Shown here in pieces: positions 54,726 to 56,655 of a DNA stretch of 64,000 nucleotides. Every line of letters begins with the position of its first letter. Position 1 is the first letter of the stretch. Source of the DNA: Dictyostelium discoideum (lineage: Eukaryota); NCBI GenBank assembly GCA_000004695.1, contig CM000155.2:192001-256000 (forward strand), given 5' to 3'. The translations under genes and the position numbers were made by a program. The notes beneath the pieces are model-generated. The model saw only the letters and a list, made by a program, of their open reading frames with translations, was not told the origin of the DNA and made no database searches.

Positions 54726-56655
54726 CTAATGGAAGAAAGCTAAGATGAAGAGTGAAAGGATAGCAACTACCAATTTAGACATTTCAATACTTGAAGCACT
54801 ATTACCTGCAGCTGGAGTTTCAGTAACATTAACAACTGGGATAGCTGGGATACAACCTGGTGGACAAGTGGCTGGTGGAGCAGTTGGTTGTTCAGTTGGT
54901 GGTGAAGTTTCTGGGAGATCTATTTGAAAAAAAAAAAAAAAAAAAGGATTAGTATGAAAAAAAAAAAAAATTTAGTAATAAAGTATTTGATTATAACTCC
55001 ACCTTTCGATGAAGAGGATGAGAGTTTGTTATTTTGTGAAGAAGATGAGGGAGATGAAGAAGATGATGGAGATGAAGAAGATGAAGAAGATGATGGAGAT
55101 GAAGAAGATGATGAAGAGATAGAAGTAGAAGATAAAGAAGAAATATTATTTAAAATTGGTTGTGAAGATGATATTGGTTTTATAGAAGTAATATTTGATT
55201 GTTGAATATAGGTTAAAGTATAATTATTTGTTGTGAAATTTTGAGTTATATTTAAAGAAGAAAGTGTATTGATGATTGTTGTAAAATTTTTTGGTGAAGA
55301 AATTGTAAAATTTAAAGTAAACATACTTGTTGATGGATTAGTTTCACAGACAGTATCGACATTGATATCAAAGAATGGATTTGTAAGAGCAGCATCAACA
55401 TAATTTAACCAGACAGAGAGACCAAAGTTACCATTTTTACCATTAGCACCTTTACCCCATTGGAGATACATATTATCTTGATCACCTGTAATTGTAACGA
55501 CAGTACCATCATTTCTAGTACATGATGAACCTGAAACATTAACGGTATAGTAAGCCCAAGTATTTGGATCAATTGAACCACCACCAGAAACGTAAGCAGA
55601 GTTCATTAATTCTAATTTTGGTTGGTAATTAGCAGATGGAAGGGCTGGGCTAAATCTTAAGTCACAGTTTACAGTGATTGATGAATCTGAAATTGAAGTG
55701 AAACCAGCACCAAGACGAAGGTTACCATTGGTTTGATCAATTGAAATGGTGTTGACAGTTCCTGAGGAGGTATCAAATCTTTGTTGATTACCGAAAACTG
55801 TTGAAACTTGATCGACGTAAAGAGCTTGATCGTTTTGTTGATCGGTTAAAGATTTATCAATTGAAGCTTTGGAGATTGTGTAGGTATTGGATACACAATC
55901 GAATGTTGAACTACAACCAAGATTGATGTTAATATCAACGACTTCCATTTCACCATTACCAGATTGAATACTTACTGAACCATCGGTAGCTTTGAATTGG
56001 AACCAACCAGAAGCACCATTTTGAAGATTTTTACCATTGGCACCAACACCAACTTGGAGAGCAGTATTTGGATTTTCAGACATTGTAACAACGGTATTTG
56101 GATTTGTTAAACTAACCATTTTAGTATTATCTGGAAGAATTTGATAGAAAGACCATGTACTTGGGTCAACTGTACCACCATTGGATGTATATGCACCAGC
56201 TTGTAACTCTCTCTTGACATCACTTGGAGTAGTAGTTCTAACGAAAGCAGCACGTAAACTAAATTTATCAGTGAGTGATGAATTGGCTGGTGTCAATGTA
56301 CCAGTTAAAACTAAATTATCCCCACCATTGCTTTGAACAACACCATTTGAAACGAAATTATAATTGTTGGCAATTTGAATTTGATTACCTAAATTATTAT
56401 TAAAGGTTAATGCATCACCACCAGTGGTTGGACCAAAAGTTGAATCAAGTTGTGCTGAACTTGCATCTATTTAAAATAATAAATAAAAAAAAAAAATAAA
56501 AAATAAAAAAAATTTTAATATATTTATTTTTTTTTTTATTTATTTATTATTATTAATTTTATATTATATTTTTAAAACTTACCATTAACTGTACACTGTG
56601 AATATGCTGATCCTGCTACAGTAAGAGCAACTAATAATACGGAAAGAACTCTCAT
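54726..56655 (-). CDS. Secreted Ser-rich GPI-anchored surface protein with two tandem homologous beta-rich domains: complement(join(54726..54919,55003..56466,56583..56655))
   Basis: Exon 1 is a signal peptide, MRVLSVLLVALTVAGSAYSQCTVN(G), ending at a GTAAGT donor. Exon 2 follows a tttaaatag acceptor: DASSAQLDSTFGPTTGG... with duplicated blocks AYTSNGGTVDPSTWSFYQI...LQVGVGANGKNLQNGASGWFQF and AYVSGGGSIDPNTWAYYTV...LQWGKGANGKNGNFGLSVWLNY, then poly-Ser. The apparent tail ...[17 protein letters not shown] is poly-A/T read-through. A phase-1 donor AAAG|GTGGAG lies at 55003, and the caaatag acceptor gives exon 3 (D)LPETSPPTEQPTAPPATCPPGCIPAIPVVNVTETPAAGNSASSIEMSKLVVAILSLFILAFFH*, a Pro/Thr stalk plus GPI-type hydrophobic signal. 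Exon 3 is in frame only with that donor. Confidence 0.6.

Follow-up and report, generated by a model that had tools for sequence, protein, structure and literature searches.

DDB_G0291392 of Dictyostelium discoideum as a probable three-exon gene for a stalked, GPI-anchored surface glycoprotein with two predicted beta-barrels

Where does the gene DDB_G0291392 of Dictyostelium discoideum AX4 end, and what kind of protein does it encode? The gene lies on the minus strand, between positions 54726 and 56655, of a 64,000-nucleotide (nt) stretch of chromosome 6 (contig CM000155.2, positions 192,001 to 256,000), which we call the window, and its product (XP_635183.1; UniProt Q54EQ7) is publicly annotated as an uncharacterised protein, precursor, of 468 amino acids (aa). 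The mechanical open reading frame (ORF) of the locus, 54920..56296, finishes in a run of phenylalanines, which a preliminary description took to be read-through, placing the C-terminus on a third exon instead. Our analyses point to a three-exon gene whose product, of about 576 aa, is probably a stalked, two-barrel surface glycoprotein of sporulating cells held by a glycosylphosphatidylinositol (GPI) anchor.

Part of this picture is already public, namely the gene together with its GPI exon and GPI label (a supplementary table marks DDB_G0291392 "GPI" and "similar to pspB"; PMC12821622), and stalked GPI-anchored developmental glycoproteins are a familiar Dictyostelium kind; nothing here overturns current understanding. 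What is new is the replacement of the upstream donor of the reference by a downstream donor, a change well supported by sequence comparison that restores 108 codons, together with the true extent and age of a domain duplication and the recognition that the duplicated module, with a predicted barrel fold, belongs to a large uncatalogued family common to bacterial surface proteins.

Exon structure and the donor of intron 2

Starting from the ATG at 56655, the minus strand carries three exons (56655..56583, 56466..55003 and 54919..54726) that together form an in-frame coding sequence of 1731 nt (576 codons and a stop). The features are as follows, a slash marking a splice junction here and below.

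56583..56655, minus strand: exon 1, 73 nt, encoding the signal peptide MRVLSVLLVALTVAGSAYS and the first 5 mature residues; ends in phase 1, followed by ...AATG/GTAAGT
56467..56582, minus strand: intron 1, 116 nt, GTAAGT...aaatag, 2.6% GC
55003..56466, minus strand: exon 2, ending aaaG/GTGGAG in phase 1
55325..55326, minus strand: proximal donor acaA/GTATGT, phase 1; the donor of reference XP_635183.1 (55327/55326), giving a 407-nt intron (55326..54920)
54920..55002, minus strand: intron 2 from the distal donor, 83 nt, 16% GC, phase 1, aaaG/GTGGAG...tactaatc...T19...caaatag
54726..54919, minus strand: exon 3, 194 nt, continuing in phase 1; stop codon TAG at 54728..54726
54745..54927, plus strand: antisense ORF of 60 aa, an artefact antisense to exon 3, no gene

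All coordinates of the preliminary description proved correct, including the 73-nt signal-peptide exon, the phase-1 donor at 55003 and the caaatag acceptor, and its three-exon model is supported by comparison with the orthologous regions of D. citrinum, D. firmibasis, D. dimigraforme and D. purpureum. A 73-nt exon 1 followed by GT is found in the first three of these, Polysphondylium violaceum has an intron at the place equivalent to intron 1, and across four species this intron measures 116, 75, 75 and 69 nt, the D. discoideum length not being a multiple of three. The phenylalanine tail of the mechanical ORF is, as had been supposed, read-through of the T runs of intron 2 (T14 and T19). Variable sites of exon 3 in the four-species comparison are distributed as 5, 3 and 20 over codon positions 1, 2 and 3 of the minus-strand frame, and it is therefore the minus strand that codes, in agreement with the earlier view that ORF 54745..54927 is the antisense of exon 3. 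Two other junctions were ruled out: the donor GGA/GTTATA (phase 0) leaves exon 3 in a frame with an early stop and no GPI signal, and the acceptor cccag/ would delete a D/N-L-P segment conserved with D. purpureum.

Residues 1-404 and the last 63 residues of the 576-aa model match XP_635183.1 (Q54EQ7) at 100%, the C-terminus of Q54EQ7 being ...LPETSPPTEQPTAPPATCPPGCIPAIPVVNVTETPAAGNSASSIEMSKLVVAILSLFILAFFH. The third exon is thus real, and it is "hidden", as it had been called, only relative to the mechanical ORF track, since the public entry holds the same 63 residues. The two models part at the donor of intron 2. The reference joins ...NPST/NLPETS and omits 55327..55004 (108 codons), the split codon reading N there and D in the 576-aa model; NPSTNLPETSPP is the junction peptide of that stalk-less form.

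Several lines of evidence indicate that the disputed segment codes for protein. In all five species the frame of exon 2 runs through it without a stop, its lengths being 324, 282, 300, 306 and 192 nt, each a multiple of three, and stops abound in its two other frames. Over its first 51 codons the four close species align gap-free, the variable columns numbering 6, 2 and 20 by codon position, and the Nei-Gojobori ratio of nonsynonymous to synonymous substitution (dN/dS) is 0.05-0.14, which is the mark of purifying selection, compared with 0.18-0.34 in the folded domains and 0.02-0.25 in exon 3. The GC content of the segment is 21-39%, against 5-8% in the flanking spacers and 3-16% in the two bona fide introns. 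Beyond the distal donor the picture is the reverse, the sequence being AT-rich, of lengths (83, 86, 70, 75 and 71 nt) whose differences are not multiples of three, and giving unrelated read-through tails in the five species.

Annotations made for other species agree with the distal donor. A stalk is present at the equivalent position in those of D. cf. discoideum, D. citrinum, D. firmibasis, D. dimigraforme and Tieghemostelium lacteum, and the first four use the junction ...SSSK/DLPETS; the D. cf. discoideum orthologue has 584 aa and is 90% identical to the 576-aa model. For D. firmibasis the gene model came from MAKER, run on genome-guided Trinity transcripts, and the UniProt proteome of D. 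discoideum served as protein evidence (PMC11193728). Because that model keeps the stalk in spite of stalk-less protein evidence, we infer that transcripts support it. In T. lacteum a 74-nt phase-1 intron with the donor g/GTTTGA follows that species' own Ser/Thr stalk and stands just before ...TPTTAPPC, a position that makes it orthologous to the distal intron, while in P. violaceum domain B, stalk and GPI signal lie in a single exon, so that the GPI-type C-terminus belongs to the protein with no splice needed.

On this comparative evidence the model with the donor at 55003 appears the best supported, as the preliminary description had proposed, and the AX4 468-aa model seems to have the right C-terminus and a 5' splice site of intron 2 that is wrong or is not the only one. 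Q54EQ7 would then probably be short of 108 residues and, since seven of the ten N-glycosylation sequons in the 576-aa model fall in the segment omitted by the reference, of those seven too; proteomics, glycoproteomics and orthology work relying on faulty reference entries would be affected. The same fault probably recurs in D. purpureum, since 64 in-frame Ser-rich codons are spliced out of its annotated orthologue. That orthologue, DICPUDRAFT_92467 (GL871156.1, gene 3001..4765 of the retrieved locus), has 472 aa and a GTAAGT donor, and a downstream phase-1 donor, cag/GTTTGA, would keep the 64 codons. The distal intron retains across Dictyostelia a tactaat(c) element near its 3' end and a non-consensus donor: GTGGAG is shared by D. 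discoideum, D. citrinum and D. dimigraforme, D. firmibasis has GTGGAT, and both D. purpureum and T. lacteum have GTTTGA.

Stalk, GPI signal and competing readings

The restored segment and exon 3 together make up the part of the protein that follows the two folded domains.

55175..55327, minus strand: conserved N-terminal part of the stalk, residues 405-455, SMFTLNFTISSPKNFTTIINTLSSLNITQNFTTNNYTLTYIQQSNITSIKP, with 6 N-x-S/T sequons; intron in the reference
55004..55174, minus strand: Ser-rich low-complexity part of the stalk, residues 456-512, a 9/27-nt tandem repeat with SSSSSP units; intron in the reference
54807..54919, minus strand: Pro/Thr-rich segment, residues 513-550, D513 LPETSPPTEQPTAPPATCPPGCIPAIPVVNVTETPAA, with Cys-Pro-Pro-Gly-Cys; dN/dS 0.02-0.25
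54729..54806, minus strand: putative GPI-attachment signal, residues 551-576, with G551-N-S-A-S-S (omega candidates), the spacer IEMSK, the 14-residue tail LVVAILSLFILAFF, and H

The precursor begins with a signal peptide (residues 1-19, MRVLSVLLVALTVAGSAYS/QC) that by rule-based reading has a hydrophobic core and small residues at -3 and -1 and is kept in orthologues, cleavage before Q20 being likely. At the other end, rules for GPI signals find small residues at omega and omega+2, a polar spacer within 5-10 residues, a hydrophobic tail within 12-20 residues (mean Kyte-Doolittle hydropathy 3.1) and no cytoplasmic extension. This pattern, which the preliminary description had read from the same letters, recurs in at least 10 orthologues across Dictyostelia and in other amoebozoan transcripts, and suggests that the protein carries a covalent GPI anchor. 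The AlphaFold full-length model places a helix at residues 559-575 and leaves the stalk disordered, with a predicted local distance difference test score (pLDDT) of 30-59.

Prespore antigen PsA (pspA) and csA (gp80) likewise consist of a signal peptide, a globular ectodomain, a Ser/Thr/Pro-rich glycosylated stalk and a GPI signal, and PsA is prespore-specific. The csA/PsA-like character earlier ascribed to DDB_G0291392 is a matter of layout and implies no homology; the likeness is one of architecture only, the ectodomain of DDB_G0291392 being a pair of predicted beta-barrels with bacterial homologues.

The stalk, whose residues after K417 read NFTTIINTLSSLNITQNFTTNNYTLTYIQQSNITSIK and whose tandem repeat Tandem Repeats Finder locates at 55037-55141, is unusual in base composition. 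Of the 324 nt of its coding strand (55004..55327) 3 are G, two of which belong to the proximal donor aGtatGt, and the plus-strand GC skew is 1.0 over 55050-55300. Serine is encoded there by 43 TCN codons and a single AGT, the one that forms the proximal donor, and the same is seen in five species; in the gene body 9 of 45 serine codons are AGY. Because G is so scarce, no GT or AG dinucleotide occurs between the two candidate donors, and this scarcity could be due to a repeat slippage bias or to avoidance of cryptic splice sites.

The strongest competitor of the favoured model is that both phase-1 donors serve as alternative 5' splice sites, so that two GPI-anchored isoforms are made, one of 576 aa with the barrels on a glycosylated stalk and one of 468 aa with the barrels beside the membrane. 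The proximal and distal sites are the only phase-1 GT dinucleotides between domain B and exon 3, each joins exon 3 in frame, both are kept in all four D. discoideum-group species, the proximal one as GTATGT, and the same pair (cta/GTAAGT and cag/GTTTGA) is found in D. purpureum despite the diverged stalk between them. A change from M to K at the proximal site (ATG to AAG) leaves the donor consensus intact, indeed closer than before; the one AGT among some 44 stalk serine codons forms the proximal donor in all five species, and the nearly G-free strand offers no other GT or AG between the two donors. Against this reading, conservation of AGT-ATG-TTT may reflect protein constraint (dN/dS of the segment is about 0.1), G-poverty may stem from TCT/TCA repeat slippage and Ser/Thr/Asn composition, and a 407-nt intron of coding-like composition would be unusual for this genome. 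We consider two isoforms unlikely, although this is the alternative to be taken most seriously. That the reference model is simply correct, with 55326 to 54920 a single 407-nt intron and its open frame fortuitous, is by contrast very improbable. GTATGT is a strong donor, and the D. discoideum and D. purpureum models both use it; set against this are a frame open over multiples of three in five species, a third-position bias and a dN/dS tighter than in the folded domains, a GC content above that of bona fide introns, the five other annotations that keep the segment, one of them transcript-guided, and the equivalent stalk that is exonic in T. lacteum and P. violaceum. The favoured model has to reckon with the proximal GTATGT, a near-perfect donor conserved as far as D. 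purpureum that may also be used, with a distal donor (GTGGAG) far from the GTAAGT consensus of Dictyostelium splice sites, and with an exact look-up in the protein collection that returned neither the 576-aa model nor the 539-aa read-through form. When the last 200 aa, covering stalk, junction and GPI exon, were searched against the same collection, no match scored, the low-complexity Ser tract having swamped the candidates.

On the same side of the scale stand two points on anchoring: GPI attachment rests on sequence rules, and the literature groups the gene with secreted spore-coat proteins, which are normally not GPI-anchored. They lead to a further alternative, that the product is a secreted, non-anchored spore-coat or matrix protein, either because intron 2 is retained (...SSSKGG and a junk tail) or because the GPI form is shed. 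Published work lists the gene among spore-coat and spore-wall genes and calls the protein SP85/PspB-related, the unspliced D. firmibasis frame stops cleanly after SSSKGG, and relatives fused to CBM49 exist (P0021 and P0104). SP85 itself belongs to the secreted coat proteins and not to the GPI-anchored ones. Yet purifying selection acts on exon 3, the GPI-signal pattern of that exon recurs in Dictyostelia and other amoebozoan transcripts, the unspliced tails differ between all species, and GPI signal and domains form one continuous stretch in P. violaceum; shedding after anchoring, for its part, is compatible with an anchored precursor. We judge a non-anchored product improbable, and the distal-donor, GPI-anchored model is the one followed below.

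The duplicated domain and its bacterial relatives

The globular ectodomain is made of two copies of one module.

55889..56598, minus strand: domain A, residues 20-217, split by intron 1; VKRELqagAYtsnGGtVDPsTWsFY, LQVGvGANGKNlqnGASGWF, VVDININL
55328..55888, minus strand: domain B, residues 218-404, second copy of the same module

The self-similarity of the two blocks, on which the preliminary description had made its internal duplication depend, is statistically clear, domain A matching domain B by BLASTP at E = 6e-15 (39% identity over 117 aa) and the reciprocal phmmer domain matches being about 1e-14. The duplication thus stands, with a unit of about 190 aa in place of the about 100 aa first proposed. 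Every dictyostelid orthologue contains both units, as Jackhmmer showed. The D. discoideum copy A shares 35-46% identity with the copies A of other dictyostelids and 22-30% with any copy B, and since it is closer to the A copies of other species than to any B, the duplication predates the dictyostelid radiation.

We defined the module family, which we call "GANGKN", by an alignment of 49 domain units (A1) whose motifs are PKxEL, SAY..GG.IDP.TW.YY, QVG.GANGKN.N.GxSGWF and DIN.DL. Both copies match the module profile over about 160-190 aa. The conserved residues of the module are E92, L93, Y98, G102, D106, W110, Q143, G145, G147, K151, N152, G156, W160, D183 and N185, of which G145, G147, K151, G156 and D183 are invariant in A1. 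An exhaustive HMMER search over clusters at 50% identity yielded 2105 representatives at E <= 1e-3, of which 462 remain at E <= 1e-30; single proteins hold between one and nine copies of the module.

That the repeated block has no match that can be named was borne out at every level. The full protein matched no Pfam or NCBIfam family at E <= 1, the 49 units gave no Pfam and no NCBIfam matches and shared no family at E <= 0.1, and the domain profile found no PDB sequence at E <= 10. Sub-threshold NCBIfam matches of whole bacterial proteins to floc_PepA and other PEP-CTERM families were considered as a route to a characterised relative and rejected; they vanish when the domain is scanned by itself and therefore derive from the sorting tail.

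AlphaFold models residues 20-400 as two confident domains (pLDDT >90), and the module is predicted to be all-beta, with an up-and-down beta-barrel core closed by terminal cysteines. Foldseek of the domain against the PDB returned nothing at E <= 0.001. Compared with known eight-stranded meander beta-barrels (OmpA/OprF/NspA, YceI, LpqH, avidins and the TbpB/HpuA lobes), identity is 3-13% with about 60% of the domain aligned, which, for the modelled structure, suggests a resemblance of fold class rather than family membership. With about 2100 clusters and a structure predicted with confidence, the unnamed family is absent from Pfam and NCBIfam and could reasonably be given an entry of its own.

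The named or typed members are mostly bacterial, and they are true domain homologues, with profile E values of 1e-30 to 1e-83 and the same motifs as A1. One bacterial class consists of proteins of about 230-260 aa that end in PEP-CTERM or VPLPA-CTERM sorting signals, and another of larger Bacteroidota-type surface proteins with type IX secretion system (T9SS) C-terminal domains. Fusions are found with choice-of-anchor A (pAdhesive_15), He_PIG/Big_9 Ig-like, SdrD_B, PA14, DUF1349 and Laminin_G_3 domains. Amoebozoan members have either a GPI-type architecture (P0013, P0143, P0165) or CBM49 (P0021, P0104). The bacterial proteins resemble the amoebal one in being exported and in losing a C-terminal tag in exchange for a surface anchor; they differ in being anchored by exosortase or T9SS instead of GPI transamidase, in having no Ser/Asn stalk, and in having mostly one copy of the module, some having up to nine. 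A full-protein library scan, with P0039 as proxy, gave no PEP-CTERM match in the amoebal protein. The module thus links a sporulation-stage amoebal surface protein to bacterial proteins with sorting tags of the biofilm or matrix type.

Two family members of Heterostelium album PN500 (P0010 and P0016) lie on the same 1.5-Mb contig. The two-domain member has an annotated C-terminus without a GPI-type tail and may be another truncated gene model; the one-domain member, named 'prespore protein', has a long Thr-rich tail.

What the module does can be approached by guilt by association: its homologues are exported, anchored by tags and joined to domains of lectin or adhesin type, and a matrix or adhesion role is therefore favoured. 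A carbohydrate-binding or adhesive role, already suggested in the preliminary description, would be a guess from co-occurrence with PA14, ConA-like, CBM49, SdrD_B and Ig-like domains. Any ligand or function given to members of the family comes from such analogy, which counts against the functional side of our interpretation, as does the finding that no exosortase or exopolysaccharide (EPS) cluster occurs within 8 kb of two bacterial members, these neighbourhoods holding housekeeping genes and being uninformative. No functionally characterised bacterial member of the module was found in the family libraries.

Going further, one could propose a new soluble beta-barrel family, shared by Amoebozoa (GPI-anchored and sporulation-specific) and bacteria (PEP-CTERM, VPLPA-CTERM or T9SS), that binds matrix polysaccharide in both and was possibly transferred horizontally, with the donor pair flanking the G-free stalk segment acting as a regulated isoform switch. 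As a whole this proposal is speculative, and we hold it to be unlikely.

The sporulation programme and neighbouring genes

Chromatin immunoprecipitation sequencing (ChIP-seq) identified DDB_G0291392 as a target of SpaA, a transcription factor of sporulation, with a peak at chr6:249071, 405 bp upstream of the gene, and listed it with spore-wall genes (PMC5923282). SP85/PspB (DDB_G0276939) is a SpaA target too, and both are late-development proteins. The peak should map to about 57060 of the window, in a promoter region of 5-13% GC between the gene and a lipase gene. The protein was detected only at culmination and in the fruiting body, and the same study calls it "related to SP85" and similar to pspB (PMC12821622). 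Some amoebozoan relatives of DDB_G0291392 fuse the module to CBM49, which is a further point in the comparison with SP85/PspB. Among the named matches of two word-indexed searches there was no protein named SP85/PspB, a result that is inconclusive given the limits of word indexes.

Placed in this context, the 576-aa protein may be a membrane-anchored module of sporulating cells that faces the matrix or spore coat. Expressed within the PKA/SpaA sporulation programme, the precursor would enter the endoplasmic reticulum by its cleavable signal peptide and exchange its C-terminal hydrophobic peptide for a GPI lipid at one of residues G551-A554. The 108-residue Asn/Ser/Thr stalk, which carries most of the N-glycosylation sequons, would be glycosylated, and sporulating cells would present the two barrels on the outside of their plasma membrane, toward the forming coat or matrix, where the barrels might bind a matrix or spore-coat component, be it polysaccharide or protein.

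The neighbours of the gene are on the plus strand.

51941..54409, plus strand: Nup96 (C-terminal) part of the Nup98-96 nucleoporin gene, convergent with DDB_G0291392 and ending 316 bp from its stop codon
58503..59072, plus strand: class-3 lipase gene (Lipase_3) with a GHSLGG motif, beyond the promoter region
58239..58469, plus strand: ORF of 76 aa ending in (LFIY)n, read from an AT-rich repeat of TTTATTTA type that lies immediately upstream of the lipase exon

The three genes (Nup98-96, the DDB_G0291392 orthologue and Lipase_3) follow one another in the same order in D. citrinum, D. firmibasis, D. dimigraforme and D. purpureum. The ORF at 58239..58469 is most likely intron or spacer rather than coding sequence.

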